From positions 73,678 to 137,677 of the forward strand of contig JAJCXY010000056.1 in assembly GCA_029263215.1 (NCBI GenBank): 64,000 nt of DNA, in the 5' to 3' direction. Below are positions 11,329-61,939 of the stretch, one piece after another (position 1 is the stretch's first letter; each line of letters starts with the position of its first letter). Made by a program: the position numbers and the translations under genes. The notes under the pieces were generated by a model. It was not told where the DNA came from. It ran no database searches and was given only the letters and a program-made list of their open reading frames with translations. The DNA is from Acidimicrobiales bacterium. Lineage in GTDB: Bacteria > Actinomycetota > Acidimicrobiia > Acidimicrobiales > Aldehydirespiratoraceae.

Positions 11329-11340
11329 GGTGTGCTCCTC

Positions 11341-14300
11341 TCAGGTCCGGGCCGAGGCCATCACCGCGGCAGTTTCGTCTTCGCCCGCTTCGCGGGCAGC
11401 CGCGGCTGCCTCGAGGACTCGTCGGTAGTCGATCGGCATGACCTTCACGAACTCCGCTGAGGTGGTACTCCACGCGGCGAGGATCCGCGCGGCCACCTCG
11501 CTCTGGGTCTCGTGATGGTGCTTCTCGATTCGGTCATGGAGCCAGGCCAGATCGTGTTGGTCGAGCTGTTCGAGAGCCACCATGTCGAGGTTGACCCGAG
11601 TCGGGAACTCAACGTGAGGGTCGTGCACGAAGGCCACACCGCCAGACATACCCGCGGCGAAGTTGCGGCCGGTCGGGCCGAGGATCACCGCCCGGCCACC
11701 GGTCATGTATTCACAGCCGTGGTCGCCCACTCCCTCCACCACTGCTGTAGCGCCGGAGTTGCGGACACAGAACCGCTCCCCCACCACACCCCTCAGGAAG
11801 ACATCGCCGCCGGTCGCTCCGTAGAGGATGACATTTCCCGCGATCACGTTTTGTTCGGCGATGAACTGGGCATCGCTCGGAGGCCTCACCACCAGTCGTC
11901 CGCCCGACAATCCCTTGCCGACATAGTCGTTGGCGTCGCCTTCGAGGCGAAGGGTGATGCCGCGGGGCACGAAAGCGCCGAGGCTATTGCCTGCCGACCC
12001 CGTGAGATTCACTACGATCGTGTCGTCGGGAAGCCCGGACGCTCCGTAGCGGCTGGTCACCTCGAAGCCGAGCAGGGCTCCGACGGTGCGGTTGACATTG
12101 CGGATAGGGATGTCGATGGTGACGGGGCGCCCCGTCTCGATGGCGCCTTCGGCCAATCGGATCAGGGTTTGGTCGAGGGCGAGTTCGAGTCCATGGTCCT
12201 GCTCTTTCCATTGGTGACGGCGAGATTCGCGGGCGATCTCCGGGAGATGGAGGATCGGTGAGAGATCGAGACCATCTGCCTTCCAGTGGCTTATGGCCTC
12301 GGTGGTGTCGAGCATTTCGACCTGACCGATAGCGGCATCGAGGGTACGAAAGCCGAGCTGGGCCATGAGTTCTCTGACCTCCTCTGCGATGTACTCGAAG
12401 AAGTTGACGACGAACTCCGGCTTGCCGCTGAACTTGGCTCTGAGTTCGGGGTTTTGGGTGGCGACACCCACGGGGCAGGTGTCGAGATGACACACCCTCA
12501 TCATCACGCAACCCATCACCACCAGCGGAGCGGTGGCGAAGCCGAACTCCTCAGCACCGAGAAGCGCCGCAACCATCACATCGCGACCGGTCTTCAACTG
12601 GCCATCGGTCTGCACGACGATGCGGTCTCGCAGGTCGTTGAGCAGGAGGGTCTGCTGGGTCTCCGCGAGACCGAGTTCCCAGGGCGCCCCGGCGTGCTTG
12701 ATCGATGTCTGGGGCGAGGCTCCGGTTCCACCGTCGTGACCAGAGATGAGGACGACATCGGCGTGGGCCTTCGAGACGCCGGCGGCCACAGTGCCCACGC
12801 CCATCTCCGCCACGAGCTTCACGTGGATTCGTGCCTTCGGATTGGCGTTCTTCAGATCGTGAATGAGCTGAGCCAGATCCTCGATCGAGTAGATGTCGTG
12901 ATGGGGCGGCGGCGAGATCAGAGCCACGCCGGGCGTGGAATGACGTGTCTTGGCGATCCATGGGTAGACCTTGTGCCCGGGGAGCTGGCCTCCTTCTCCC
13001 GGCTTTGCTCCCTGCGCCATCTTGATTTGGATGTCGTCGGCGTTGACCAGGTATTCGCTGGTCACGCCGAAGCGACCCGACGCGGCCTGCTTGATCGCGC
13101 TACGGCGAAGGTCGCCGTTGGCATCGGGAACGAAACGCTCGGCGTCCTCGCCGCCCTCGCCGGTGTTGGACTTCGCCCCGATCCGGTTCATGGCGATGGC
13201 GAGGGTCTCGTGAGCTTCTGTCGAGATCGAGCCGTAGCTCATGGCGCCGGTGGAGAAGCGTCGGACGATCGATGCCACCGACTCGACCTCCTCGATGGGA
13301 ATCGGCGGCCTCTGGTCGGTGCGGAAGCGGAACAGGCCGCGAAGGGTGCCGATCCGTTCGGACTGGTCGTCGACCGCGCTGGTGTACTCCTTGAAGATGT
13401 CGTAGCGACCAGCGCGGGTGCCATGTTGGAGCTTGTAGACGGTTTCGGGGTTGAAGAGGTGGTGTTCTCCCTCTCTACGCCACTGGTACTGGCCACCGAC
13501 CGCGAGGGTGCGGTGGGCCCGCTCCGCACGATTGGCGGGATGAGCGATCGCGTGGCGCTGGGCCACCTCTTCGGCCAGCACGTCGAGTCCGACGCCGCCG
13601 AGGCGGCTGACGGTGCCGGTGAAGTACTCGTCGACGAGATCTGTGGCGAGTCCGATCGCCTCGAAGATCTGAGCGCCTGTGTAGGAGGCAACCGTGGAGA
13701 TGCCCATTTTCGACATGACCTTCAGGATTCCGGAGCCTGCCGCCTCTACATAGTTGTGGTGGGCCTCGCCCGGGCGGAGATCCGGGTCGAGCCCGTGCTC
13801 ACCGTTGGCCACCATCGAATCGATGGTGGCGAAAGCCAGGTAGGGGTTGATGGCGTTTGCCCCATAGCCGAGCAGCACACAGATGTGGTGCACTTCTCGC
13901 ACGTCACCGGACTCGACAACCAACCCCACTCGGGTTCGGGTCTTGGTCCGGACCAGGTGGTGATGCACGGCTCCGGTTGCCAGAAGCGATGGTATGGGCG
14001 CGGTTTCCGCCCCGCCCCCTCGATCCGACAAGATGAGGACAGTGGCACCTTCGGCGATCGCCGTGTCTGCGGCTGCCCTCAGTTCCTCCAGTGCGCGTGC
14101 GAGTCCGTCGCCACCGTCTTTCACCACGAAGCGGGTAGGCAGCACCGAACTGTGGAAACCCTCGGGCCCCTCGTTGCCATCGAGCGCCGCGATTCGAGCG
14201 AGTTGATCATCGGTGATCACCGGATTGTCGAGATGGATCGTGCGACACGCCGACGGTGTGGAGTCGAACAGGTTGCCTTCCGGCCCCACCCTGGCGAACA

Positions 14301-15960
14301 GGGACGTGATGATCTTCTCCCTCATGGCGTCGAGAGGAGGGTTGGTGACCTGAGCGAAAAGTTGCTGGAAGTAGTCGGCGAGTTGCCGCGAGCGGGCGGA
14401 GAGCACCGCGATCGGAGTGTCGGTACCCATCGACCCGATCGCTTCCTTTGCGTCGCGGGCCATCGGCGCAAGAAGAATCTTCTTCTCCTCGTAGGTGTAG
14501 CCGAACTCCTGTTGGAGCTGGATGAGCGTGCTCTCGACCGGGGCGGCGGGTTCGGCTGCGGGCAGGTCGTCGAGCCCGACCTGGTTGGAGTCGAGCCATT
14601 CGCCATAGGGCCGTCGGGACGAGATCCTGTCCTTGAGTTCGGTGTCGCGGATGATCCGGCCTTCGCGGGTGTCGATGAGGAACATCCGGCCCGGTTGGAG
14701 GCGGCCCTTCTCGACGATCGTCCGTTGGGGCAGATCCACCACGCCCACCTCGCTCGCCATCACCACCAGGCCGTCGTCGGTGACCCAGTAGCGCGAGGGA
14801 CGCAGTCCGTTGCGGTCGAGCACTGCGCCCATGACGGTGCCGTCGGTGAAGGCAATCGATGCGGGACCATCCCAGGGCTCCATCCGCGCTGCGTTGTAGC
14901 GGTAGAAGGCCCGCCGCGTCTCGTCCATCTCCTCATGGTGTTCCCACGGCTCGGGAATCATCATCAAAATGGCCTCTTCGAGCGGGTAGCCGCCGAGGGT
15001 GAGCAGTTCGAGCGCCTCATCGAATCCGGCGGTGTCGCTGGCCCCTGGTGTGCAGATCGGGAAGGCGCGTTCCAGTGCGGGCAGGTGGGGACTCCGTAGG
15101 AGGGCCTCGCGGGCGCGCATCCAGTTGCGGTTGCCCTGGATCGTGTTGATCTCCCCGTTGTGGGCCACAAAGCGGTACGGGTGAGCAAGCGGCCAGGACG
15201 GGAAGGTGTTGGTGGAGAAACGTGAGTGCACGAGCGCCAGCGCGCTCTCCACCCGCTCGTCGAGAAGATCTGAGTAGAAGGCCGACAGCTGGGGGGTGGT
15301 GAGCATCCCCTTGTAGACGATCGTGCGGGCACTGAGCGAGGGAAAGTAGACGCCGTCGTGGGCTTTGGAGGCGCCACCCATGGCTTCGTTGACCTCGTCG
15401 GGCCCTGCCGCGACCGAAATCTCGTGTTCGATGCGCTTGCGGGCGATATATACCGGCCGGTCGAGTTCGACTCCGCTCAACCCCTCGCCGGCTACGAAGA
15501 TCTGGCGGAAGGTGGGCATGGTCATCACCGACGCCGAGCCGAGGATCGATTCGTCGATTGGCACATCGCGCCAACCCAGCACCGTCAGGCCCTCCTCCTG
15601 CAGGATCGCCTCGACTGCGTCGGCCGCTTCGAGCGCGGTTTGGGAGTTTTGAGGGAGGAATGCGATACCGACGGCGTACTCCCCCATCGGAGGAAGATCG
15701 AAGGGCACGACATCGCGAAAGAAGCGGTCGGGAATCTGGATGAGGATGCCCGCACCGTCGCCGGTATTGATGTCGGCGCCCAGAGCGCCGCGATGTTCCA
15801 TCGCACAGAGCGCCCCGATCGCCTGGGCCACGATGTCGTGACTGGGTCGGCCGTGGATGTCGCAGACGAAGTTGACCCCGCAGCTGTCGTGCTCATGACG
15901 CGGGTGGTAGAGGCCCTGAGGCGCCGGCAGGTCGTTGTTGGGGAGAGTGCCAGTGGGCAT
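11341..15960 (-). CDS. gltB: Glutamate synthase large subunit.
   Basis: 1539 aa. The amidotransferase domain has an N-terminal Cys (HDSCGV). FMN/3Fe-4S central domain and a C-terminal GXGXG beta-helix domain are present. Confidence 0.97.
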
Positions 15961-21832: not shown

Positions 21833-22435
21833 TCAGTGAGTTGGGGGATCAAGGGCACCGGGCCGGAATTCCACGACACCGTCCTCGGTGACGACTGCAT
21901 CGAGGGGGACGTCCCAAGGCTCGGCGGGAACAAGGTCGACTCGCTGCAAGGAGTGGGCAACCCCGATGACGATGGGGCGCGAAGAGTCCGTTGCGGCGAG
22001 GGCGCGATCGTAGAAGCCTCCCCCTTGGCCGAGGCGGTTGCCCTGCTCATCGAACGCCACGAGCGGGGCCAGAACCACGTCGTGGCTCTGAAGAGGCACG
22101 GGATCACCCGCGACAGGCTCTTGGATCCCGAACGAACCGGTGGTGGCCTCGCCGTCGGGGTCCCACCTGAGGAACTCAAGATGGTCGCCCACCACGCGAG
22201 GCACAGTGATGGTGCGTCCCGATTCACACAGCAGTATCAGTGCGGCATCAATGTCGATCTCGCCGCGCACCGCCCGATAACCGGAGATGATCGACACCTC
22301 TCGCAGCAGAGGCAGGCGAGCCAGTCGCGCCATCACCGCCATCGCTGCCGCGGCCTGGTCGTCGCCTGACAGGGCGGTGCGACGCTCTCTCAAGTCGAGG
22401 CGCATCGCTCGTCGCTGGCTGGCGAGTTGGGTCAT
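21833..22435 (-). CDS. 5-formyltetrahydrofolate cyclo-ligase.
   Basis: GGGFYDR signature and the ...PRVV...LEF... pattern. The start is uncertain, either ATG 22435 or ATG 22495. Confidence 0.78.
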   Translation of the reverse strand: MTQLASQRRAMRLDLRERRTALSGDDQAAAAMAVMARLARLPLLREVSIISGYRAVRGEIDIDAALILLCESGRTITVPRVVGDHLEFLRWDPDGEATTGSFGIQEPVAGDPVPLQSHDVVLAPLVAFDEQGNRLGQGGGFYDRALAATDSSRPIVIGVAHSLQRVDLVPAEPWDVPLDAVVTEDGVVEFRPGALDPPTH

Positions 22436-22508
22436 CGGACGAACGGTACCGGCTGGAGCCGTGGCTGTGGAGACCGGTGAGGCCCCCACAGCCATCAGAA
22501 TCCGTCGC

Positions 22509-36017: not shown

Positions 36018-37442
36018 TCAGGAGCGCGCCCCCAACACCGCCTTGGCCTCCAGATACTCCTCGAGGCCGAGAGGACCCCACTCGCGCCCGTTGCCCGACT
36101 GCTTGTAGCCACCGAACGGTGCGTTGAAGTCGGGACCAGCGCCGTTGACGTGCACGTTGCCGGTTCGGAGCCGGCGGGCCACCGCGACAGCACGCTCCTG
36201 GCTACCCGAGACGTAGCCCGAGAGGCCGTAGACGGTGTCGTTGGCGATCCTCACTGCATCGTCGTCATCCTCGTAGCCGATGATGACCATGACGGGTCCG
36301 AAGACCTCTTCACGGGCAATGCGCATGTCGTTGGTGACGTCGGCGAAGACGGTGGGACGGACGAAGTAGCCCGAATCGAGGCCGTCTGGGAGGCCCGTTC
36401 CCCCGGCAACCAGGGTGGCGCCCTCGTCGATTCCGGCTTGGATGAGGCCCTGGATCTTGTTCCATTGGACCTCAGACACCACCGGACCCATCATCACTGC
36501 GTCGGAGCCTGGGTCGCCCACCGAGATCGCCTCAGCGGTTTTCGCCGCGATCCCCGCTGCTTCATCCATGCGACTGTTGGGCACCAACATGCGGGTGCCG
36601 GCATTGCACGACTGGCCGGAGTTCATGCACATCCCACCCATGTCGCGGGCCACTACCTCGGCGAAATCCGCGTCGTCGAGAATGATGTTGGCTGACTTGC
36701 CTCCGAGTTCCTGGGCCACTCTCTTCACCGTGGGAGCGGCGTTTCTGGCCACCTCGACCCCGGCCCGCGTTGATCCGGTGAACGACATCATGTCGACGTC
36801 GCTATGAGCGGACAGATGAGAGCCCACCGTGGGACCGTCGCCATTCACGAGGTTGAACACCCCGGCCGGGACGCCGGCGTCGTGGAGGATCTCGGCGAAG
36901 AGGATCGCGTTGAGCGGCGCCACTTCCGAGGGCTTCAGCACCATTGTGCAGCCGGCGGCGAGGGCAGGGGCGACCTTGCATGCGATCTGGTTGAGAGGCC
37001 AGTTCCAAGGGGTGATCATCCCCACCACGCCCACCGGTTCCTTGACCAGCAGGAAGTTGTCGTGCTGTTCCTCGAAGTCGAAACCACGAAGGATGGCCGC
37101 GGTTGTGGCGAAGTGGAAGAAACCCGTGGGGGCCTGAGCGGCCTTGGCCAGTCCGCCCGGCGCCCCCATCTCCGCGGAGATGGTGTCGGCCAGTTCCTCT
37201 GATCGGGTCCCGAGGAGCTCGGTGATCTTGTCGAGGATTGCGAGCCGCTCCTCGACCGAGGTCTGGGAGTAGGTCTCGAAGGCGGCCTTGGCCGCCGCGA
37301 CCGCAGCATCGATGTCGGCCGGCCCACCCATCGCTATCCGGGTTATCGCCTGTTCGGTGGCCGGGTTGATGACCTCGATGGTGGTGTCGGTGGTGGGCTC
37401 CACCCACTCGCCGTTGATGTAGAACTTTTCACTGTTGGTCAC
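36018..37442 (-). CDS. NAD(P)+-dependent aldehyde dehydrogenase.
   Basis: Motifs FTGSTRAG, ELGGKS and catalytic NSGQSCNAG. The GTG start has GGGAG 8 nt upstream. Confidence 0.95.
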   Translation of the reverse strand: MTNSEKFYINGEWVEPTTDTTIEVINPATEQAITRIAMGGPADIDAAVAAAKAAFETYSQTSVEERLAILDKITELLGTRSEELADTISAEMGAPGGLAKAAQAPTGFFHFATTAAILRGFDFEEQHDNFLLVKEPVGVVGMITPWNWPLNQIACKVAPALAAGCTMVLKPSEVAPLNAILFAEILHDAGVPAGVFNLVNGDGPTVGSHLSAHSDVDMMSFTGSTRAGVEVARNAAPTVKRVAQELGGKSANIILDDADFAEVVARDMGGMCMNSGQSCNAGTRMLVPNSRMDEAAGIAAKTAEAISVGDPGSDAVMMGPVVSEVQWNKIQGLIQAGIDEGATLVAGGTGLPDGLDSGYFVRPTVFADVTNDMRIAREEVFGPVMVIIGYEDDDDAVRIANDTVYGLSGYVSGSQERAVAVARRLRTGNVHVNGAGPDFNAPFGGYKQSGNGREWGPLGLEEYLEAKAVLGARS

Positions 37443-37525
37443 GATGCTGCTCCCGGTGTTTGCAGGGTCGATTCGGCCGCGCCGACCCTAGACCCGAGTT
37501 CGGACAGGTCGAAACTCGCGTGCGG

Positions 37526-38881
37526 TCAGATCCGCTCGAAGTATCGGCTCTTCTCCCAATCGGTCACCGCGGCCTCAGAGGCCGCCACCTCCGTCGAGAA
37601 GTGATGGGTGTAGTGATCGACCACCTCGTCGCCGAGCAGGCGGCGAGCATCGGCGCTCTCGCTGAAGCGCGCCGTGGCCTGATGGAGGGTGGACGGCACG
37701 GTGGCCGACGCGGTGGCGGAGTAGACATCACCTTCCAGCTCGTCGTCCGGTTCGATCCGGTTGCGAATACCGTCGAGCCCGCTCGCGATGGCTGCGGCGT
37801 AGGCCAGATGGGGGTTGACGTCGGCGCCGGGGATGCGGTTCTCGATCCGGAGACTCGAGCCCGCACCGACAATCCGGAACCCAGCCGTGCGGTTGTCGGT
37901 CGACCAGGCGATTCGAGTTGGGGCCCATGACTGGTTCTGGTAGCGCTTGTAGCTGTTGACCGTGGGCGCGTAGCAGACCATCAGATCGGCGGCATGGCGC
38001 ATCCAGCCACCGAGGAACCAGCGGAACTCGTCGCTGCGCTCACCCCCCGGCGCCGCGAAAACGTTGCTTGGTTCCTCTTCGTCGGTCCAGAGCGAGAGGT
38101 GGATGTGGCAGCTGTTGCCGGGCTGGGCGGCATCGGGCTTCGCCATGAAGGTGACACTCACGCCCTGGGAATCGGCCAATTCCTTCATCGCGTGCTTCAT
38201 CACCGAGTGCCGGTCGGCCATGGTGAGAGCGTCGGCGTAGCGCACATTGAGTTCGTGTTGACCGATAGCGGCCTCGCCCTTGGAGTTCTCGACCGGGATC
38301 CCGCTGGCGGCCAGGGCGCGGCGGGCAGCCCCGACATAGTCCTCCACCCGCGCTCCTTGCAGGAGGTGGTAGTCCTCCACGTACCACCCGGCAGACTCCA
38401 GGCCGGCGTATCCCTTCTGGTGAGCAGAGCGGTAGGACTCGCGGTAGAGGTAGAACTCGAGTTCGGAGGCGGCGGCGGCGCGATAGCCCTCAGTGGCCAG
38501 CGCGTCGACCTGTCGACGCAGCATCGAACGCGGCGCAATGTCGACGAGGCTGTGGCTCGAGTTGTCGACCACATCACAGAGCACAAGGGCCGTACGGCTG
38601 GTCCACGCCGCCAGGGTTAGGGTGTCTAGATCGGGAACGAGGTGGAAGTCGCCGTAACCCGACTGCCAGTTCGAGTAGGAGTAGCCCTCGACCGGGTCCA
38701 TCTCCATGTCGACGGTAAGCAGGTAGTCACACGCGTGGGTTCCTTCATCGAGCGCGTTCGAGACGAAGAACCCGGCGTCGAACCTCTTCCCCATGAGGCG
38801 CCCGTAGTGGTCGGTGAACCCCACTATCACCGTGTCGACCTCGCCGGAATCGGTCATTGTCTTCAACTCGCTGATCTGCAT
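37526..38881 (-). CDS. Glutamine-synthetase-family gamma-glutamyl-amine ligase (GlnA-like).
   Basis: GS catalytic domain motifs (KPDAAQPGNSCHIHLSLW, NRTAGFRI). GGAGG lies 4 nt upstream of the ATG, directly after the Fe-ADH stop. Confidence 0.9.
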   Translation of the reverse strand: MQISELKTMTDSGEVDTVIVGFTDHYGRLMGKRFDAGFFVSNALDEGTHACDYLLTVDMEMDPVEGYSYSNWQSGYGDFHLVPDLDTLTLAAWTSRTALVLCDVVDNSSHSLVDIAPRSMLRRQVDALATEGYRAAAASELEFYLYRESYRSAHQKGYAGLESAGWYVEDYHLLQGARVEDYVGAARRALAASGIPVENSKGEAAIGQHELNVRYADALTMADRHSVMKHAMKELADSQGVSVTFMAKPDAAQPGNSCHIHLSLWTDEEEPSNVFAAPGGERSDEFRWFLGGWMRHAADLMVCYAPTVNSYKRYQNQSWAPTRIAWSTDNRTAGFRIVGAGSSLRIENRIPGADVNPHLAYAAAIASGLDGIRNRIEPDDELEGDVYSATASATVPSTLHQATARFSESADARRLLGDEVVDHYTHHFSTEVAASEAAVTDWEKSRYFERI

Positions 38882-51885: not shown

Positions 51886-52760
51886 CCGGCGCGAACCACG
51901 TCGATCACCTGCTCGGCGAAGCGATGCACATGCTCAGGCGTGAGTGGATGGCCGAAATCCATCGTGAAGTAGCTCACGCCGAGACCAACGAGATCGCCGA
52001 CCTTCGTTGCCAGCTCTTCGCCTTCGTCATCGGTGGTGGGTAGGGGCGCTTCGAGGGTTGTGCAGAGTTCGATGTCGTGGGGGTCGCGGCCGGCCTCTGA
52101 CGCGGCCGCCCGGACGATGCCGAGCTTGCGCCTCCAGTCGTCGACATTTCGGGTGGAGCAGTTCCACATATCGGCCTGGCGCCCCACCAGCGGCAAGCCG
52201 ATCTTCTCACCCGCAGCACCGATGCAGATGGGCGGAACGATGTCGGGGAGGGGCGGCGCGGCCGCATCATCGATCGAGAAATACTCGCCCTGGAACGTGG
52301 GATGATCGTGGGTCCACATCAGTCGACAGATCTCCAGCATCTCCTCGAGTTCTGCGAAGCGAACCGACGCCTTGGGGAAGTCGTAGCCGTAGGCCTCGTA
52401 CTCCCCACCTCTCCAGCCCGCTCCTATCCCGAGGATGAACCGGCCGCCAGACAGGGTCTGGAGGGTGGCAGCCATCTTTGCGGTGAGCGCCGGCGGGCGG
52501 TATCCGTGGCCGAGGACGTGGTGGCAGAGCATCACGTCGGGGAACTTCGCGGCCAACCAGGTGAGAGTGGTCCACGCCTCGAGGAAGGGATCGGTGCGAG
52601 CGTCGAAGCCGTAGAAGTGATCGGCAATCCACAGGGAGTCGAAGTACTCGACCACCGTGGGGAGGATGTGCTCCTCCTGGTAGATCACGATCGACTGATG
52701 ATCGCTCCCCGCATTGCCGATCACCGGCGAGAGCCATCCGAACTTGAGATCATGGGTCAT
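51882..52760 (-). CDS. Luciferase-like (LLM class, probably F420-dependent) oxidoreductase.
   Basis: TIM-barrel LLM pattern: FDSLWIADHF, GRFILGIGAGW, and the C-terminal VSYFTMDF. ATG 52760 preferred. Confidence 0.85.
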   Translation of the reverse strand: MTHDLKFGWLSPVIGNAGSDHQSIVIYQEEHILPTVVEYFDSLWIADHFYGFDARTDPFLEAWTTLTWLAAKFPDVMLCHHVLGHGYRPPALTAKMAATLQTLSGGRFILGIGAGWRGGEYEAYGYDFPKASVRFAELEEMLEICRLMWTHDHPTFQGEYFSIDDAAAPPLPDIVPPICIGAAGEKIGLPLVGRQADMWNCSTRNVDDWRRKLGIVRAAASEAGRDPHDIELCTTLEAPLPTTDDEGEELATKVGDLVGLGVSYFTMDFGHPLTPEHVHRFAEQVIDVVRAG

Positions 52761-52818
52761 GAGCGCCGACGCTAGGCCGCTTGTCGGCTCACTGCACAGA
52801 CCGTGCAAGGATCACTGC

Positions 52819-53847
52819 ATGCTGATCGTGAGCTCCGACGCCCATCGCCACCATCACTGCCTCGAACTCGACGGCGCCAAGCTGATCGACTCGTGGGAGG
52901 GACCCGACCGAGCCGACTCCATCGATGCTGCCCTCCTGGTCGCAGGACTTGGGCCGTCGGTGGAACCGGAGCCATTCGACCGCCAACTCGTTGAGCGGGT
53001 GCACCTCCCCGACTACGTCGACTTCCTCTCTGAAGCCTGGGCTCGCTGGGTTGCCGGTGGCAACGAAGCGCCGGCCGCAATGGCGTTCGGCTGGCCGGCA
53101 CGACGGTTTCGCTCGATCCGGCCCCGTCACCTGAATGCCCAACTCGGCTTCTACAGTTTCGCCGCGGACTGCTCGATCGGAGCCGGCACCTGGCCGGCGG
53201 CTCAGGCCAGCGCGGCGATGGCCGACACTGCGGCTCGACACGTCGCCGAGAGCGGTCAGCCGGCCTTTGCACGATGTCGCCCTCCGGGCCACCACGCGAT
53301 GCGCGACCAGTTCGGCGGCTACTGCTACGTCAACAATGCTGCGGTCGCCGCGGAACGCCTGATCGAACTCGGTGCGGCGCGGGTGGCGATCCTCGACGTC
53401 GACTATCACCATGGCAACGGCACCCAGGACATCTTCTACGGGCGCGACGACGTGATCTTCTGTTCGATCCACGCCGATCCACTCGTCGAGTTCCCCTACT
53501 TCCTCGGCCACCGAGACGAGACGGGCGAGGGACCGGGAGAGGGTTCGAACCTCAACCTCCCCTTGCCCCACGGCACCGACGCCACGGCCTGGTTCGAGCA
53601 GCTTGATCGAGCCGCGCTCTGGATCAAGGCGAGTGGAGCAGAAATGCTCGTCGTCTCACTCGGAGTCGACACTTTCGAACACGATCCGATCTCCCGCTTT
53701 CGCCTCTCGCGCTCCGACTTCACCGAGATCGGTCGGCGCATCGTCGACCTCGATCTCCCCACCGTGCTGGTGATGGAGGGCGGCTACGCCACCGAGGAAC
53801 TCGGCAAGAACGTGGTGGAGGTCCTAAGCGGATTCAGCGACACCTAA
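52819..53847 (+). CDS. Histone-deacetylase-family (arginase/deacetylase fold) amidohydrolase, acetylpolyamine/acetoin-utilisation type.
   Basis: RPPGHHA, DVDYHHGNGTQ and EGGY motifs. ATG 52819. Confidence 0.88.
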   Translation: MLIVSSDAHRHHHCLELDGAKLIDSWEGPDRADSIDAALLVAGLGPSVEPEPFDRQLVERVHLPDYVDFLSEAWARWVAGGNEAPAAMAFGWPARRFRSIRPRHLNAQLGFYSFAADCSIGAGTWPAAQASAAMADTAARHVAESGQPAFARCRPPGHHAMRDQFGGYCYVNNAAVAAERLIELGAARVAILDVDYHHGNGTQDIFYGRDDVIFCSIHADPLVEFPYFLGHRDETGEGPGEGSNLNLPLPHGTDATAWFEQLDRAALWIKASGAEMLVVSLGVDTFEHDPISRFRLSRSDFTEIGRRIVDLDLPTVLVMEGGYATEELGKNVVEVLSGFSDT

Positions 53848-53849
53848 TG

Positions 53850-54932
53850 TCAGTCGGCAGCAACCTCGGCCAGCGTGGCCAGGAACCGGTCGTTCTCTTC
53901 GGGGGTACCGATGGTGACGCGAATTCCCTGGCCCGGGAAGGGACGGGTGACAACACCCTTCTGCTCGAGTCCGATATGGATCTGATCGGTACGACCCGAC
54001 GTCGGGATATAGACAAAATTGGCGTTGGCATCGGGCAGGTCCCAGCCGAGGTCGCCCAAAGCTCCCACCACCCGGTTGCGTTCGGCGAGCAGCAGATCGA
54101 TCCGCGGCTGGATCTCCTCCAGCGAGTCGAGCACTGCGAGGCTCGCCGCTTGGGCGAGCATGTTCGACGCGAAAGCGAGCAGCACCTTGTCGAGTTCCAT
54201 CACCAGCTCGGGGTGGGCGATCACATAGCCGGTGCGGAGTCCCGCCAGACCATATGCCTTGGAGAAAGTACGGCTCACCACCACATTGGGATGTGAGGGC
54301 AGGAGATCGGTCACCGGATCGCCAAGGGCAGGGTCGGAGAATTCGCGGTAGGCCTCATCGACCAGCACCACGACGTCGTCGGGGATCTGCTGCAGCAAGG
54401 AAGCGAGCTCGGTAGTGCTCACGGCAGTCCCCGTGGGGTTGTTGGGCGTGGCCAGCATCACGAGCTTGGTACGGGGGGTCACTGCGGCCGCCACCGCGTC
54501 GAGATCGAAGGCGTGATCGACAAGGTCGGTGGTGACCGGTGCCGCGGCCATCATCTTGACGTTGATCGGGTAGGCCTCGAACGAGGGCCAGGGGTAGACC
54601 ACCTCGTCGCCTGGGTCGAGATAGGCGAGACAAAGTTGCTGGAGCAGGCCCACCGAGCCACATCCCACCGCGACCTGATCGGCGCCCACACCGACCCAAC
54701 CGGCGATACGAGACCTCAGCTCGGTGGCGCGGTGGTCGCTGTAGCGGTTGACCCCCGTCGCTGCAGCCTGGATGGCGGCAACCACCGAAGGAGCGGGCTC
54801 ATAGGGGTTTTCGTTGGAGGCGAGCTTGATCGCATGACTGATTCCATGCTCAGCCTCGGCCTGGCTCGCGGCCTTGCCCGGACGATAGGCGGCGAGGGCG
54901 GTGACGGACGGTCGGACTCGGCCCACGGCCAT
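53850..54932 (-). CDS. hisC: Class II aminotransferase, histidinol-phosphate / aromatic aminotransferase type.
   Basis: LASNENPYEP, and SRTFSKAYGLAGLRTGY (PLP lysine). ATG 54932 has AGGAG 6 nt upstream and lies 16 nt after the hutI stop. Confidence 0.85.
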   Translation of the reverse strand: MAVGRVRPSVTALAAYRPGKAASQAEAEHGISHAIKLASNENPYEPAPSVVAAIQAAATGVNRYSDHRATELRSRIAGWVGVGADQVAVGCGSVGLLQQLCLAYLDPGDEVVYPWPSFEAYPINVKMMAAAPVTTDLVDHAFDLDAVAAAVTPRTKLVMLATPNNPTGTAVSTTELASLLQQIPDDVVVLVDEAYREFSDPALGDPVTDLLPSHPNVVVSRTFSKAYGLAGLRTGYVIAHPELVMELDKVLLAFASNMLAQAASLAVLDSLEEIQPRIDLLLAERNRVVGALGDLGWDLPDANANFVYIPTSGRTDQIHIGLEQKGVVTRPFPGQGIRVTIGTPEENDRFLATLAEVAAD

Positions 54933-54948
54933 GATCGGCTCCTGTTGA

Positions 54949-56127
54949 TCAGTCGGGTGAGGTGATGAAGGCACCCAGTGGACCGACAGTATGGCGCACC
55001 AGGGGCACCCCCGGCCTATACGCGAGGTGATGATGTGAGGGAGCGTCGAGGATTGTGGCGTGCCCGAGGCACCCCGGGGCGAGGCGGCCGATGTCGTCGC
55101 GCTGCAAAGCCCTTGCCCCTCCGATCGTCGCGGCCTGAACCGCCTCGTCGATGGTCATGAACATGTCGCGCACGGCGATTGCGATACAGAACGACATCGA
55201 GGTGGTGTAGCTCGAGCCCGGATTGCAGTTGGACGCGATCGCCACTGTCGCTCCCGCATCGATCACCCGGCGAGCATCGGGATAGGGCTGACGGGTGCTG
55301 AAATCGGCGGCGGGCAGGAAGGTGGCGACGGTATCGCTCGATGCCAGGGCGTCGATGTCGGTGTCGGACAGAAACGTGCAGTGGTCGACCGAAGCGCACC
55401 CACACTCCACTGCCACCTGAACCCCCGGACCCTCGCCAAGCTGGTTGCCGTGGATTCGCCCGAGGAGACCTGCCTCTCGTCCCGCGGCGAGCACAGCACG
55501 GGTCTGGTCGGCATCGAATGCCCCGGTCTCGCAGAAAACATCGATCCATCGAGCATGAGGAGCGGCCGACGCCAGCATCTCGTTGCAAACCAACTCGACG
55601 TAGTCGTCGGCTCGTTCCTCGTACTCCGATGGCACCAGATGAGCCCCGAGGAAGGTGGTCTCTGCCGTGTAGTGCTCGGCCACCTCGAGACTGCGCACCT
55701 CATCAACCACGTTGAGCCCGTAACCAGACTTGATCTCGATCGTGGTGGTGCCGGCTCGATGAGCCTCGGCCAACCTCAGTTCGGTGAGGCGCCTCAGCTG
55801 CTGCGTACTCGCCGATCTGGTGGCATCGGTGGTGACCCTTATGCCGCCTCCGTCGTAGGGGCGACCAGCCATGCGGGCGGTGAACTCCTCTGCCCGATCG
55901 CCCGCGAAGACGAGATGGGTGTGGGAATCCACGAACCCGGGGAGCACACAAGCTCCTCGCGCGTCGATCTGTTCATCGGCAATCGCACCCGCGGCTCCCA
56001 CCGCCGCCACGGTGCCGCTCTCGATCACCAGGGATGCGTCCCTGACGATCCCGAGTTCGCCCTCTCCTAGCGACGGGTCGTTGGTGACGAGCTGACCGAT
56101 GTTGTCGATGACGAGTGACCCGCTCAT
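54949..56127 (-). CDS. hutI: Imidazolonepropionase.
   Basis: Amidohydrolase fold: [12 protein letters not shown], and the HutI-typical IEIKSGYGL. Its ATG overlaps the hutF TGA (ATGA). Confidence 0.95.
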
Positions 56128-57458
56128 GGGGACATGACCTCCTGGATGCTGGAACCCAACTCCGCGGGCACGTCGATGGTGACATGGGTGCCGCCACGGA
56201 CCACGCGTGCTCCGTCGATGAACACGTCGGTGACGTCCTCGGCGCCCGCCGCGAACAGCACCACTCTGTCGGCGGGTGATCCCGCAGTACGAACCGAGTC
56301 GAGCCGCACCGCGATCAGATCGGCGCGGGCACCAACGCTGATCCGACCCACATCAGTCCAGCCGAGAGAGCGATGCCCCGCCTCGGCGGCGGCCGTCAGA
56401 AGTTCCGAGGCCGGGAATGATCCCCTCACCCCGGACCTGAGTCGCTCATCGAGCTCCAGAGCCCGTGCCTCCTCGAACATGTCGATGACGGCGTGGGAGT
56501 CAGAGCCCAATGCGAGCGCCACACCAGCCCGCGAGAGCAGGGTGGCAGGTCCGATCCCATCGGCGAGGTCTCGCTCGGTGGTGGGACACAGCGCAACCGT
56601 GGCTCCGGAGTCGGCCAAGATCGCGATATCGGCGCCGCTGAGGTGGGTGGCGTGGATCGCGGTTGTAGACGCACTGAGCGCACCGGCTTCGCCGAGTAGC
56701 GCCGTGGGGGTGAGGCCGTGGTGGGCGAGGCATTGGTCATTCTCGGCCACCTGTTCTGAGAGATGAACGTGGAGCGGCCACCCTCGATCGATCGCCCATG
56801 TACCCACCCGCGCCGCAGAGTCGCGGTCGACCGCGCGCACCGAATGGAGGGCAGCTCCGAGCCTGGCCGACCCCTCGATCGCAACCTGATCGACTCGGTC
56901 GATCCAGGCATCGGCATCGGCATCGGCGAAGCGTCGCTGGAACCCGTCGACCGGCCCGTGACCGCTGGCTGACAAGCTCCCGTGCAGGTAGACGGTGTCG
57001 AGCAGGGTGATGCGGATCCTGGCGTCGGCGGCCGCAGCGAGTACCGCTTCTGCCATCGCGTTGGGGTCTCGGTAGGCCGTGCCGTCGGCCTGATGATGCA
57101 CGTAGTGGAACTCGCCAACGGTGGTCACTCCTGCACAAACCATCTCAGCAAAGGTGGCCCGGGCGAGCCGGTGATAAGAGTCGGGGTCGAGGTTGGTGGC
57201 CGCTCGATACATCTGCTCACGCCAGGTCCAGAACGAACCGCTTCCGGCCTGGGTGCGGCTCCGCAGCGCTCGATGAAATGCGTGGCTATGGGCATTCGCG
57301 AATCCCGGCAGCACGAGCCCCCTCAACTTCTCATCGTGAGGCTCGGCGTCGACTCCAGATTCGATCGACGAGAAGCATCCGTCCTTCACCGTGAGCCTGA
57401 CGCGGGCCTCGACCTCATCGGCCACGAGGGCATGGTCACACCAGAAGGTCTTGGTCAC
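56124..57458 (-). CDS. hutF: Formimidoylglutamate deiminase.
   Basis: [21 protein letters not shown]....[10 protein letters not shown] is characteristic of HutF. Its GTG 57458 overlaps the def TGA (GTGA). Confidence 0.88.
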
Positions 57459-58027
57459 GACCCGACTCGGTCGACGAACTCGGTGATTCGCGCCACGAAA
57501 GCATCGCGGTGGTGAGCTTCGTATTGCTCCCATGTGGCGAGGGTGGAGGGGTCGCTGACACGGTCGACGAACAAGACGCCGTCGAGGTGATCACACTCGT
57601 GTTGCCAGGTGCCGGCGGTGAGGCCCCGCACCACCTCGTCGTGTTCGGTGCCTTCCCTGTCGAGATACCGCACTCGGATGTTGACGTGGCGTTCGACGTT
57701 GCCTCGCAGCGGCACCGAGAGGCAGCCCTCGTTGAGTTCGACCAACTCGTCGTCGAGGGGCACGATCACCGGGTTGATCGCAACTGTGAGCGGGATCGTC
57801 GGCTTGTACGGATAACGGGGATTCTTGTTCACCTCGAGCACCGTGACCCTCAGCGGGCTTCCGATCTGGTTGGCCGCAATTCCGGCCCCATTGGCCGACC
57901 GCATCGTGTCGATGAGATCGTCGATCAGGGACTGAACCTCGACCGATCCGATTCGATCAGCCGCGATCTCCGGCGCCTTCGTTCTCAGGGCCGGATGGCC
58001 GATGGCGAGAATCTCCCGGGCTGGCAT
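57455..58027 (-). CDS. def: Peptide deformylase family metallohydrolase, embedded in the hut operon.
   Basis: All three PDF motifs are intact: GAGIAANQIG, EGCLS and QHECDH. Its ATG overlaps the hutU TGA by 1 nt. Confidence 0.9.
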   Translation of the reverse strand: MPAREILAIGHPALRTKAPEIAADRIGSVEVQSLIDDLIDTMRSANGAGIAANQIGSPLRVTVLEVNKNPRYPYKPTIPLTVAINPVIVPLDDELVELNEGCLSVPLRGNVERHVNIRVRYLDREGTEHDEVVRGLTAGTWQHECDHLDGVLFVDRVSDPSTLATWEQYEAHHRDAFVARITEFVDRVGS

Positions 58028-59685
58028 CAGGTCTCCGTCATTGGTACCCGGACGCCTCGATCTGCGGCCACCGCCTGGGCCTCCGGGTAGCCCGCATCGA
58101 CGTGACGCATCACCCCGGTGCCGGGATCGTTGGTGAGCACCCGTTCGAGCTTCTCGGCCGCGAGGTCGGTGCCGTCGGCGACGCAGACCTGGCCCGCGTG
58201 GATCGATCGGCCGATGCCGACTCCACCGCCATGATGAATACTCACCCAGGTGGCACCGGAGCAGGTGTTGAGCAGCCCGTTGAGCAGTGGCCAGTCGGCG
58301 ATGGCATCGGAGCCGTCGAGCATGTCTTCGGTCTCCCGGTAGGGGGAGGCGACCGACCCGGAGTCGAGATGGTCTCGACCGATCACGACCGGGGCCTTCA
58401 ACTCGCCGCTTCGCACCATCTCGTTGAAACGGAGTCCGAGCCGGTGCCGCTCCCCGTATCCCAACCAGCAGATACGGGCCGGGAGGCCCTGGAACGCGAC
58501 CCGCTCGCCGGCCAGATGGATCCAGCGCGCCAGCGCTTCGTCGTCGGGGAACTCCTCCAGCACGGCGCGATCAGTGGCGGCTATGTCGGCGGGATCGCCC
58601 GAGAGCGCCACCCACCGGAACGGACCCTTCCCCTCACAGAAGAGGGGCCTGATGTATGCGGGGAGGAAGCCTGGATAGGCGAAGGCGCGGTCGAAACCCC
58701 CCAGCTCGGCCTCGGCCCGCAGGCTGTTGCCATAGTCGAAGACTTCGGCGCCCGCATCCATGAATCCCACCATCGCCTCACAGTGCACTGCCATCGCCAG
58801 GCGAGCCCGTCGGGTGAATTCCCCTGGATCGGTGCGCCGGAGTTCGTCGGCGGCGTCGAGCGAAAGATCGTTCGGCAGATAACTCAGGGGGTCGTGAGCC
58901 GATGTCTGATCGGTGACGATGTCGGCCGCAACACCGTCGGCCAGCAGTCGAGGAAGCACGTCGGCAGCATTGCCGACCAGCCCCACCGAAAGGGCCCGGC
59001 GGGCCTTCCTCGCCTCCTCCACCCGGGCCACGGCGGTTGGGTAGTCGGGCGCGATTTCATCGAGGTAACGATGATCCAAGCGCCGCTGCAGCATGTGCGG
59101 GTCGACGTCGACCACCAGCACCGCTCCGTCGTTCATGGTGACGGCCAAGGGTTGGGCACCACCCATGCCTCCTGCTCCGGCGGTGATCGTGAGGGTGCCC
59201 GCCAGTGTGCCGTTGAAGCGCTTGCGGGCAATTTCGGCGAAGCACTCGTAGGTGCCCTGCAGGATTCCCTGGGTGCCTATGTAGATCCATGAGCCCGCTG
59301 TCATCTGGCCGTACATCGTGAGTCCGAGATGTTCGAGACGGCGGAACTCATCCCAGTTCGCCCAGTCGGGCACGAGGTTGGAATTGGCGATGAGGACACG
59401 CGGGGCCCACTCATGGGTGCGGAACACGCCAACCGGCTTGCCCGATTGGACGAGCATTGTCTCATCGCGGTCGAGCGTCGTGAGGGTGCGCAGCATGGCG
59501 TGGTAGGCGTCCCAGGAGCGGGCGGCACGGCCCGTACCGCCGTAGACCACCAGTTCTGCGGGGTTCTCCGCCACCTCGGGATCGAGGTTGTTCTGCAGCA
59601 TTCGAAATGCTGCTTCCTGCGGCCATCCCCGGCAGGCCAGATCGGTTCCTCGGGGTGCATGGATGGGGTAGGGAGCTGAAGACAT
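58027..59685 (-). CDS. hutU: Urocanate hydratase.
   Basis: [33 protein letters not shown], with the full-length HutU pattern. ATG 59685 preferred to TTG 59724. Confidence 0.97.
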
Positions 59686-59729
59686 GGTGATTGCATTGTT
59701 TCGGCCCGTCCCATACGTTGTCAATCACC
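59686..59729. promoter_or_regulatory. Perfect 8-bp inverted repeat bracketing the 62-nt hutU / IclR divergent region. Candidate operator.
   Basis: GGTGATTG (59686-59693) and CAATCACC (59722-59729), separated by 28 nt. Confidence 0.3.
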
Positions 59730-59747
59730 GAGAGGAGATGTCAGACA

Positions 59748-60416
59748 GTGACAACTGATCAAACTGCTTCACGAAGCACCGGCCGCACCCTCGATCTCCT
59801 CGAATTCGTGCTCACCAGGGGTGAAACCAACCTCACCGCCGCGGCCGCCGCCGCTCATCTCACCCCCACGACCGCCCTGCGCCACCTCAAGTCGCTGGAG
59901 GCCCGAGGATTCGTCCATCGCGACGACATCGGCTCCTTCTCGGCCGGCCCCACCTTCCTACGTCTGGCCGCGGCCGCGCTCGAGTCCGGTCCCCGCGCCC
60001 ACCTGATCGCTCTGGCGCGTCCCCACCTGCTCGAGCTCAGCAAGCAGACTGGCGAATCGGCCTATCTGGCAATGAGGGAAGCAGATCACGCGGTGTATCT
60101 CGCCACCGAGGAGAGCACCCGCGCCATCCGCCACACGGGCTGGCTCGGGCGGATGGTTCCCCTCGTCGGCACTGCGGTCGGCGAAGCCCTTCACGGCGAA
60201 GAGGGCGTCAGGGTACGAACCGGCGCCGTCGAGCCCGATATCACCGCGGCCGCCATCAGAATCGACTCCTATGCCGGGGCGGTGGTGGCCATCACGGTGG
60301 TGGGCCCCACGCACAGGATGGGAGAGACCCAACTCACCGAAATCAGCGTGCTGCTCAGCGATGCGGCCCACCAATTGGGTCGCTCACTGGGCGCCGCAGT
60401 AGAGGCAATCCGATGA
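59748..60416 (+). CDS. IclR-family transcriptional regulator (probable hut regulator).
   Basis: N-terminal wHTH (GRTLDLLEFVL...LTAAAAAAHLTPTTALRHLKSLEARGFV) and a C-terminal IclR effector domain. GTG 59748 has GGAG 9 nt upstream. Its stop overlaps the hutH ATG (ATGA). Confidence 0.85.
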   Translation: MTTDQTASRSTGRTLDLLEFVLTRGETNLTAAAAAAHLTPTTALRHLKSLEARGFVHRDDIGSFSAGPTFLRLAAAALESGPRAHLIALARPHLLELSKQTGESAYLAMREADHAVYLATEESTRAIRHTGWLGRMVPLVGTAVGEALHGEEGVRVRTGAVEPDITAAAIRIDSYAGAVVAITVVGPTHRMGETQLTEISVLLSDAAHQLGRSLGAAVEAIR

Positions 60417-61939
60417 CCATAATTCTCGAAGGACCAGGCGTCACGATCGCCGATGTGGTGGCCGTCGCCCGCGAGGACTCGGTGGTGGAACTATCGGCCA
60501 CCGCCCTCGAGCGAATGGTTGCCTCGCGAGCGGTGGTCGACCTGCTCGCCGCCGGCGATCCCGCCTACGGGGTCTCCACCGGATTCGGCGCTCTTGCCGC
60601 GGTGGCCATCCCTCCTGATCGCCGCAGTGTTCTTCAAGCCTCCCTCGTGCGCTCCCACGCGGCGGGGCTCGGGCCACCCGTGGAGAGAGAGGTCGTCAAG
60701 GCGATGATTTTCCTCCGAGCCCGCACCCTCGCCCTCGGCTACAGCGGCACTCGCCCCCACCTGGCCGAGGCGATGATCACCCTCCTCAACGCCGATGTCA
60801 TCCCGATCGTGCCCGAGCATGGTTCACTCGGTGCCAGCGGCGATCTGGCCCCACTCGCTCATGCCGCCCTCGCCTTGCTCGGCGAGGGCACGGTCGTGCA
60901 CAACGGCACCGAAAGGCCCGCGGCCGACGCTCTCGCCGAGGTCGGTCTCGCACCTCTCCAACTTGCCGAGAAGGAGGGCCTGGCCCTCACCAACGGCACC
61001 GACGGAATCCTCGGAATGCTGTGTCTCGCGGCCGACGATGCCCACCGCCTGCTCGTGCAGGCCGATATCACCACCGCGATCACCGTGGAGGCCCTCCTGG
61101 CTACCGACCGAGCCTTCGCCGATGATCTACAAGCACTCCGGCCCCACCCCGGGCAGCGCACGAGCGCTTCCAACATTCGTTCGGTGCTCCACAACTCGCC
61201 GATCATCGCCAGTCACCGCGACGCCGACTCCCGCGTTCAAGATGCATACTCCATCCGGTGCAGTCCCCAGGTGAATGGCGCGGCTCGCGACACCCTCGAT
61301 CATGCCGTGCAGGTGATCGAGTGGGAACTCGCCGCCGCGATCGACAACCCGATGGTGCTGCCCGACGGCCGGGTGGAGTCTTGCGGCAATTTTCATGGCG
61401 CTCCTCTCGGCTTTGTCGCCGACTATCTCGCCATCGCGCTCGCCGAGGTCGGGGCGATTGCCGAACGAAGAATGGACCGCCTTCTCGACCACACCAGATC
61501 ACACGGTCTGAATCCCTTCCTGGCCGACGACCCCGGCGTCGACAGTGGTCTCATGATCGGGCACTACACCGTCGCCGCGATGTGCGCGGAAAATCGACGC
61601 CTCGCGGCTCCGGCCAGCGTCGACTCTCTCCCCACCTCGGGTATGCAGGAAGATCATGTGTCGATGGCGTGGGGCGCGGCGCGCAAGCTTCGCAAGGTGA
61701 TCGACAACGTGAGGCGAATCCTCGCCGTCGAATGGGTGATCGGGGCCCGCGGGGTGGAGATGCGCTCCCCGCTTCAGGCTGCGACGGCTACGGGGGCAGG
61801 CATCGCCCTCCTCCGCACCGAGGTGCCGGGTGTCGGGCCCGATCGACACCTGTCACCCGAGTTGACGGCGGCGGAGCGACTGCTCGACGACGATCGACTG
61901 CTCACCGCGGTTCGCGCCGCGGGCGCGTCGCTCCGCTAG
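60413..61939 (+). CDS. hutH: Histidine ammonia-lyase.
   Basis: MIO-forming triad in GSLGASGDLAPLAH. 508 aa. Confidence 0.97.
   Translation: MTIILEGPGVTIADVVAVAREDSVVELSATALERMVASRAVVDLLAAGDPAYGVSTGFGALAAVAIPPDRRSVLQASLVRSHAAGLGPPVEREVVKAMIFLRARTLALGYSGTRPHLAEAMITLLNADVIPIVPEHGSLGASGDLAPLAHAALALLGEGTVVHNGTERPAADALAEVGLAPLQLAEKEGLALTNGTDGILGMLCLAADDAHRLLVQADITTAITVEALLATDRAFADDLQALRPHPGQRTSASNIRSVLHNSPIIASHRDADSRVQDAYSIRCSPQVNGAARDTLDHAVQVIEWELAAAIDNPMVLPDGRVESCGNFHGAPLGFVADYLAIALAEVGAIAERRMDRLLDHTRSHGLNPFLADDPGVDSGLMIGHYTVAAMCAENRRLAAPASVDSLPTSGMQEDHVSMAWGAARKLRKVIDNVRRILAVEWVIGARGVEMRSPLQAATATGAGIALLRTEVPGVGPDRHLSPELTAAERLLDDDRLLTAVRAAGASLR

Follow-up and report, generated by a model that had tools for sequence, protein, structure and literature searches.

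The def-like gene of the hut locus

The window analyzed here is a 64-kb stretch of an Acidimicrobiales genome (contig JAJCXY010000056.1, 65% G+C), from which ∼56 open reading frames (ORFs) were selected by codon-position GC and scanned against Pfam. By the names of its best protein relatives, the DNA is Ilumatobacteraceae-like, within the Acidimicrobiia. It carries a histidine-utilization (hut) locus in which a gene for a 190-residue protein of the peptide deformylase (PDF) fold, hereafter the def-like gene, is inserted between hutU and hutF (Table 1). This protein is proposed to act as a non-orthologous HutG, the enzyme that deformylates N-formylglutamate in the HutF branch, with a probability of roughly 0.7.

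An earlier note on this DNA had listed hutH, hutU, hutI and hutF, and all four score above their NCBIfam equivalog cut-offs. It had also described hutU, def, hutF and hutI as joined by overlapping stop and start codons, and each overlap can be read directly in the minus-strand sequence: TGATG between the hutU stop and the def start (58025-58029; the plus strand reads catca), GTGA between the def stop and the GTG start of hutF (57455-57458; tcac on the plus strand), and ATGA between the hutF stop and the hutI start (56124-56127; tcat). A Shine-Dalgarno-type GGAG lies 8-11 nt 5' of the def ATG. The hutF GTG start at 57458 agrees with the hidden Markov model (HMM), whose position 3 aligns to residue 2, so that the longer hutF ORF from ATG-57533 is not needed. 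The overlaps support co-transcription and likely translational coupling of the def-like gene with the hut enzymes; the note's word for this, co-translation, was wrong. The three catalytic PDF motifs that it had named are all intact in the product, as GAGIAANQIG (residues 47 to 56), EGCLS (residues 100 to 104) and QHECDH (residues 142 to 147).

Table 1. Genes of the hut locus and its flanks (window coordinates)
Gene or product	Coordinates	Strand	Assignment and remarks
def-like PDF-fold gene, 190 aa	57455..58027	-	PF01327, E 4.5e-44; proposed N-formylglutamate deformylase
hutU, urocanate hydratase	58027..59724	-	TIGR01228, 886 bits; alignment from residue 21
hutF, formimidoylglutamate deiminase	56124..57458	-	NF006681, 594 bits (cut-off 362); TIGR02022, 443 bits (cut-off 413)
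hutI, imidazolonepropionase	54949..56127	-	TIGR01224, 353 bits (cut-off 298)
IclR-family regulator	59691..60416	+	PF09339 and PF01614; divergent from hutU, overlaps hutH start
hutH, histidine ammonia-lyase	60413..61939	+	TIGR01225, 634 bits
hisC-like class I/II aminotransferase	53850..54974	-	NF002878, 421 bits; overlaps hutI stop
HDAC-like/acetylpolyamine-amidohydrolase-family gene	52714..53847	+	PF00850; convergent with operon end

The earlier note had seen no FGase-type or arginase-type HutG in the window, and the Pfam scans agree: neither FGase (PF05013) nor arginase-type HutG (PF00491) nor an M20 protein was found among the scanned ORFs. The def-like protein has PF01327 as its sole Pfam match and shows no homology to PF05013 or PF00491. 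The only member of the arginase/deacetylase superfamily in the window is the HDAC-like gene, which was rejected as an alternative HutG because its place beside hut genes is conserved only in locus L041.

The IclR-family gene adjoins hutH in most related loci, and its product is the probable regulator of the hut locus. The ORFs listed for hutU and for the IclR gene, which start at TTG 59724 (minus strand) and TTG 59691 (plus strand), respectively, share 34 bp in a head-to-head overlap (59691-59724). Since the hutU HMM alignment begins only at residue 21, at least one of the two starts is mis-called; the true hutU start probably lies downstream of the listed TTG, and the divergent promoter region between hutU and iclR must be very short. 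At the other end, the hisC-like gene is possibly the last gene of the operon transcript. It is not a conserved part of the cluster, adjoining hutI only in L041 (Ca. Microthrix) among the 80 related loci described below.

Linkage to hut genes and fusion to HutF

A genome scan with the window protein places relatives of it in more than 460 species genomes. For the 80 closest loci (69-77% identity), taken with flanks of ±10 kb, hut genes were mapped by tblastn with the hut proteins of the window. The def-like gene lies beside hut genes in 79 of these 80 loci, nearly all of them ordered hutH / iclR / hutU-(gap)-def-hutF-hutI. Two further scans, with the more distant subfamily members P0125 and P0145 as queries, extend this pattern: all of their Actinomycetota-labelled matches (5 and 24 loci, respectively) are hut-linked, and the hut-linked loci span Acidimicrobiia, Solirubrobacterales and Thermoleophilia. 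Among the Actinomycetota matches, L236 has the rearranged order hutF-def-hutI. A 4.97-Mb Ilumatobacteraceae contig (GCA_033344875.1) has the same overlapping hutU-def-hutF-hutI arrangement as the window, and OZ244195.1 is another genome with the hut-def operon. The def-in-hut synteny thus recurs in ∼110 Actinomycetota loci and, in different gene orders, in four Burkholderiaceae loci. The linkage is not due to chance.

Outside the Actinomycetota, four Burkholderiaceae genomes (assemblies GCA_045106815.1 and GCA_041396585.1 among them) encode a member of 53% identity, placed within hut clusters of the proteobacterial type, whose hut genes are just 34-62% identical to those of the window. In L331 and L286, hutC-hutF is divergent from hutI-hutH-hutU-def; L328 reads hutH-hutU-ABC transporter-def, and L329 reads hutU-def-TRAP transporter. 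Because these gene orders differ, the Burkholderiaceae linkage does not stem from a single transferred operon. FGase is absent within ±10 kb of the Burkholderiaceae def-like genes, and no PF05013 match occurs in the Pfam-annotated loci L322-L332.

The gap of ∼850 bp between hutU and def, present in 32 of the 80 closest loci, holds a gene for a PhyH-family Fe(II)/2-oxoglutarate dioxygenase (PF05721), not an FGase (L004:5180-6004 and 31 others of L001-L080). The same gene is present at L248, L251, L256, L265 and L268, and the window is without it. Masking of the known genes leaves no further family that recurs in more than 7 of 105 hut-def loci, so that the conserved extras are limited to the def-like gene and, in some of the loci, PhyH.

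The PhyH gene lends itself to a different account, in which the def-like protein is a small-molecule deformylase or hydrolase acting on another substrate, such as N-formylisoglutamine, another N-formyl amino acid or the product of the PhyH-type dioxygenase. Besides the PhyH genes themselves, this account can draw on locus L018, where hutU-phyH-def has no hutF downstream, and on unlinked family members in other catabolic islands (e.g., nitrile hydratase and sarcosine oxidase in L322). It is nevertheless decidedly improbable. The tightest partner of the def-like gene is hutF, which is adjacent in most loci and fused to it in protists; PhyH is missing from the window and from many loci; and the encoded pathway has no known formylated intermediate other than N-formylglutamate.

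Two observations concern individual assemblies. Three metagenome-assembled genomes (MAGs) labelled Verrucomicrobiales, Gammaproteobacteria and Candidatus Poribacteria (L025, L031 and L047) carry the Acidimicrobiia-type order hutH/iclR/hutU-def-hutF-hutI at 72-73% identity, and these contigs are probably mis-binned. The Ilumatobacter MAG JBLFZD01 has two def copies of the subfamily termed group A below, one in a hut operon (L077) and one (L026) whose 3.8 kb of upstream sequence is free of hut genes; the second copy could reflect a paralogue, strain heterogeneity or contamination.

The association with hutF extends to gene fusion. Protein P0176, retrieved by a 50%-cluster search, is a clean 659-residue PDF plus amidohydrolase protein, and at least 17 clusters of PDF-HutF fusions (640-736 residues, including P0271-P0284) are 55-70% identical to it. 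The N-terminal part of these proteins scores above the NF001159 cut-off and the C-terminal part above that of NF006681. Some derive from EukProt transcriptomes, one of them from the chrysophyte Paraphysomonas, and others lie on marine eukaryote-like contigs (L241-L245) with eukaryote-type neighbors (EF-hand, ankyrin/LRR, Oscp1 and a 1541-residue ABC protein). The same fusion recurs on 6 and 11 contigs, so that it is not an assembly artefact. Scanning genomes with P0176 returned no fusion from prokaryotes, only stand-alone hutF. P0145 represents a stand-alone domain of the fusion type; its prokaryotic relatives reach at most 52% identity in the genome scan, and its subgroup is therefore probably eukaryotic. 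From its domain composition, the fusion is predicted to be a bifunctional enzyme leading from formiminoglutamate to glutamate. A further composite, P0207, is a 590-residue and possibly eukaryotic protein that joins an N-terminal PDF domain to ankyrin repeats.

A parallel exists in an unrelated family. In oomycetes, HutF forms a fusion protein with an M20 ArgE/DapE-like deacylase (P0291, P0303, P0327, P0340, P0346, P0381, P0385 and P0387). In 55 of 80 hutF loci (L081-L160; e.g., L117:4829-5998), from Gemmatimonadota, Acidobacteriota and Planctomycetota, the gene immediately upstream of hutF encodes an M20 enzyme. M20 was not found in any of the def-bearing loci examined. Two unrelated amidohydrolases thus fill the slot of HutF partner in a complementary manner, which makes M20 another candidate family for the step of HutG.

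Subfamily, active site and solved relatives

By fold and motifs, the def-like protein is a member of the PF01327 superfamily. It exceeds the NCBIfam PDF cut-offs (NF001159, 148 versus 125 bits; TIGR00079, 113 versus 104 bits), and its AlphaFold2 model is confident (predicted local distance difference test score of 94.6). The best Foldseek match of the model is the PDF of Leptospira interrogans (LiPDF, 1SV2), with template modeling (TM) scores of 0.86/0.95 and a root-mean-square deviation of 1.1 Å. The protein belongs neither to the FGases nor to the formiminoglutamases or M20 enzymes, and it would work like HutG from outside the HutG family.

Sequence alignment splits the PDFs with an enlarged CD loop cleanly into two groups. 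Group A is defined by G-A-G (GAG-x-AA-x-Q), an invariant NPRYPYKP loop, AGTxQHExDH and a tail of ∼45 residues after HExDH, which forms a long helix. It comprises the window protein, the Burkholderiaceae proteins, the Myxococcota relatives and the HutF-fused domains, and its signature varies little or not at all among hut-linked, unlinked and HutF-fused members. The window protein displays all of these features, with NPRYPYKP at residues 69 to 76, G-L-T-A-G-T-W-QHECDH and a C-terminal helix (residues 166 to 188). The G-x-G-x-AA-x-Q, EGCLS and HExDH motifs are likewise invariant across hut-linked and HutF-fused members. Group B, which includes LiPDF and 6JFC, is marked by RYPDAP, W-EGCLS, F-H-A-R-V-V-QHE and a short tail.

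The aligned S1' residues of the window protein differ in part from those of a Met-binding PDF. Residues I44, I86, L125, I128 and C129 of the E. coli enzyme align with A48, L98, L136, G139 and T140, so that three of the five positions are changed to smaller or polar residues (I44, I128 and C129 to A48, G139 and T140). Position 98 is L in the window protein and I or V in most hut-linked relatives. Judging from the alignment, these changes would open the pocket and make it more polar, so that, with the invariant Arg71, Tyr72, Tyr74 and Lys75 of the enlarged CD loop as part of a mobile lid, it could accept a small dicarboxylate in place of a methionine side chain and peptide backbone. As for a residue signature specific to hut-linked proteins, only D92, the I98/N99 swap, N116, H129 and F184 separate Acidimicrobiia from Myxococcota; these candidates were rejected, since none survives the inclusion of Burkholderiaceae, L183, L236 and the fusions.

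LiPDF (1SV2, 1Y6H and 1SZZ) is also the best sequence match to the window protein (E 3e-39, 42% identity). It shares the three catalytic motifs and an enlarged, mobile CD loop starting with N-x-R-Y-P. It differs in reading RYPGTP where the window protein has RYPYKP, in having Y-K-A-I-V-Y-QHE, with a hydrophobic S1' wall, instead of L-T-A-G-T-W-QHE, and in being without the C-terminal helix of ∼25 residues. LiPDF acts as a PDF on fMet peptides, and no linkage of its gene to hut genes is known. Its CD loop is described as alternating between open and closed forms above the active site (PMC3101196).

The 'class I type b' second PDFs of Pseudomonas aeruginosa (6JF9-6JFN) and Burkholderia (5KOB, B. 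xenovorans; 5VCP) belong to group B. They resemble the window protein at ∼43% identity and TM scores of ∼0.8/0.94, with a loop that starts N/S-E-R-Y-P, and differ from it in RYPDAP, W-EGCLS, F-H-A-R-V-V-QHE and a short C-terminus. Group B is a group of peptide enzymes, since the P. aeruginosa protein was crystallized with a Met-Ala-Ser product (6JF9).

These comparisons also bear on whether the def-like gene might be the organism's sole housekeeping def, placed in a hut operon by happenstance. A second PF01327 gene is absent from the window, and the window and the fetched loci contain only one PDF per locus (tblastn and hmmsearch). Likewise, fmt is absent from the window and from the surroundings of every member in 240 loci (tblastn with an E. 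coli Fmt query). Such absences fit a sole def; they are weak evidence, as the window and flanks cover a small part of each genome. Against it, the protein is just distant kin of the actinobacterial housekeeping type (M. tuberculosis 3E3U matches at E 1.7e-15, versus 3e-39 for LiPDF), its nearest relatives are found in Myxococcota and Proteobacteria, and an essential gene translationally coupled within a regulated catabolic operon would be implausible. A housekeeping role is thus scarcely credible. Proteobacteria as a rule have def paired with fmt, and group A is for that reason an extra copy there.

Group A members outside hut clusters stand in varied contexts, among them a nuo operon, the vicinity of a transglutaminase-like gene, and a nitrile hydratase/sarcosine oxidase island. 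The last of these occurs in a gammaproteobacterial MAG (L322:5115-5690, also L323), where the group A def overlaps a 2-hydroxyacid dehydrogenase gene, with genes for nitrile hydratase subunits and a soxBDAG sarcosine-oxidase/creatinase-like island on its flanks. Such surroundings hint that the subfamily may have further formyl or amide substrates.

A proposed HutG step and its weight

In the proposed pathway, HutH, HutU and HutI would convert histidine to formiminoglutamate, which HutF would deiminate to N-formyl-L-glutamate. The def-like protein, as a PDF-fold, metal-dependent formamide hydrolase, would then release formate and glutamate. Cys102, His143 and His147 would serve as metal ligands and Glu144 as the catalytic residue, with the oxyanion stabilized by Gln54 and the Leu103 backbone. 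The FGase-type HutG would thus have been replaced through non-orthologous displacement. The proposal builds on the gene order, the codon overlaps, the catalytic motifs, the conserved linkage, the protist fusion and the lack of any other conserved amidohydrolase in the loci; N-formyl-L-glutamate is the substrate to which these point. Coupling to hutF, in the same operon or by fusion, with no other conserved candidate in the loci, supports assignment of the gene to the role of EC 3.5.1.68.

The protein would share both reaction and position with HutG of Pseudomonas-type hut operons (FGase, PF05013, EC 3.5.1.68), acting directly after HutF. In L331, for example, the def-like gene closes a HutC-regulated hutI-hutH-hutU operon that has hutF beside it. 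The two proteins differ in having no relation in sequence or fold, the def-like protein being of the PDF fold with Cys/His/His metal ligands. The M20 deacylase is comparable in another respect, as an amidohydrolase in the slot of HutF partner to which the same missing-HutG logic applies; its fold, too, is unrelated.

Several points weigh against the proposal. Formyl-amino acids without a peptide bond are poor substrates of classical PDFs. The protein passes the NCBIfam PDF equivalog cut-off, and its closest solved relatives (LiPDF, 6JF9 and 5KOB; 42-44% identity, TM up to 0.95) are genuine PDFs, LiPDF sharing even the enlarged R-Y-P loop. Hut linkage is missing from the group A members of Myxococcota, Planctomycetota and other Proteobacteria with 50-70% identity, no residue in the alignments separates hut-linked from unlinked members, and the hut-linked set is not monophyletic in a neighbor-joining tree. 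Finally, a similar context-based prediction, made for a hut-clustered M20 protein (COG0624) of Streptomyces avermitilis, was reported as negative in vitro, the protein having shown no deformylase activity (PMC3223725, Table 3, case 20).

Much of this would suit a genuine PDF paralogue that acts on nascent fMet peptides and is co-expressed with the hut genes, for instance as a back-up enzyme insensitive to accumulating N-formylglutamate or formate. An extra def paralogue co-regulated with histidine catabolism was the alternative already offered in the earlier note, and it can claim the intact PDF motifs and equivalog scores, the active PDFs among the nearest structures, and the many close subfamily members outside hut clusters with identical active-site residues. 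The fusions weaken it: joining to HutF in eukaryotes makes little sense for a ribosome-associated organellar PDF, the more so as the C-terminal helix is followed there by a domain of 450 residues. Moreover, the linkage has outlasted operon rearrangement in two phyla, the S1' residues are unlike those of Met-binding PDFs, and, if the protein were a PDF paralogue, the HutF product would lack any enzyme in over 100 loci, where no other candidate is conserved. A peptide-directed paralogue is therefore considered unlikely, and N-formylglutamate deformylase remains the preferred assignment.

Since no residue distinguishes the linked members and the linked set is not monophyletic, the function of group A, whatever it is, is probably common to all of its members. 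It is possible, as a tentative extension of the N-formylglutamate assignment, that the whole of group A consists of small-molecule N-formyl-amino-acid deformylases rather than PDFs. N-formylglutamate would be their main substrate. Their genes would lie in hut operons in Actinomycetota and part of the Burkholderiaceae, stand apart from hut genes in Myxococcota and other Proteobacteria, and be joined to hutF in protists, where the fusion protein would be bifunctional, turning formiminoglutamate into glutamate, ammonia and formate.

Full-text literature searches found no paper linking a peptide deformylase to hut genes or to N-formylglutamate. Among the matches examined, every member with a source name is annotated 'peptide deformylase', apart from one fusion named 'formimidoylglutamate deiminase'. 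What would be new is the pairing of a known fold with a known reaction. The recruitment of a PDF-fold enzyme as the missing deformylase, as suggested in the earlier note, is favored by the conserved neighborhood, the protist PDF-HutF fusions and the complementary distribution of M20. If correct, it would give the PDF fold a metabolic, non-ribosomal function and close a long-standing gap, the HutG step of HutF-type hut clusters without FGase, for which the earlier M20 candidate had failed in vitro (PMC3223725). The annotation would have to be corrected wherever the gene sits among hut genes or is fused to them, and the protist PDF-HutF protein would be explained. The assignment would also bear on PDF paralogues and on the targets of PDF inhibitors, as not every PF01327 gene would encode a drug-relevant PDF.

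Elsewhere in the window, and with no linkage to the hut locus, lie other genes of nitrogen or one-carbon metabolism, all on the minus strand: a 5-formyltetrahydrofolate cyclo-ligase (21833-22495), the large and small subunits of glutamate synthase (9865-15960), and a glutamine-synthetase-like gene beside an aldehyde dehydrogenase (36018-38881).

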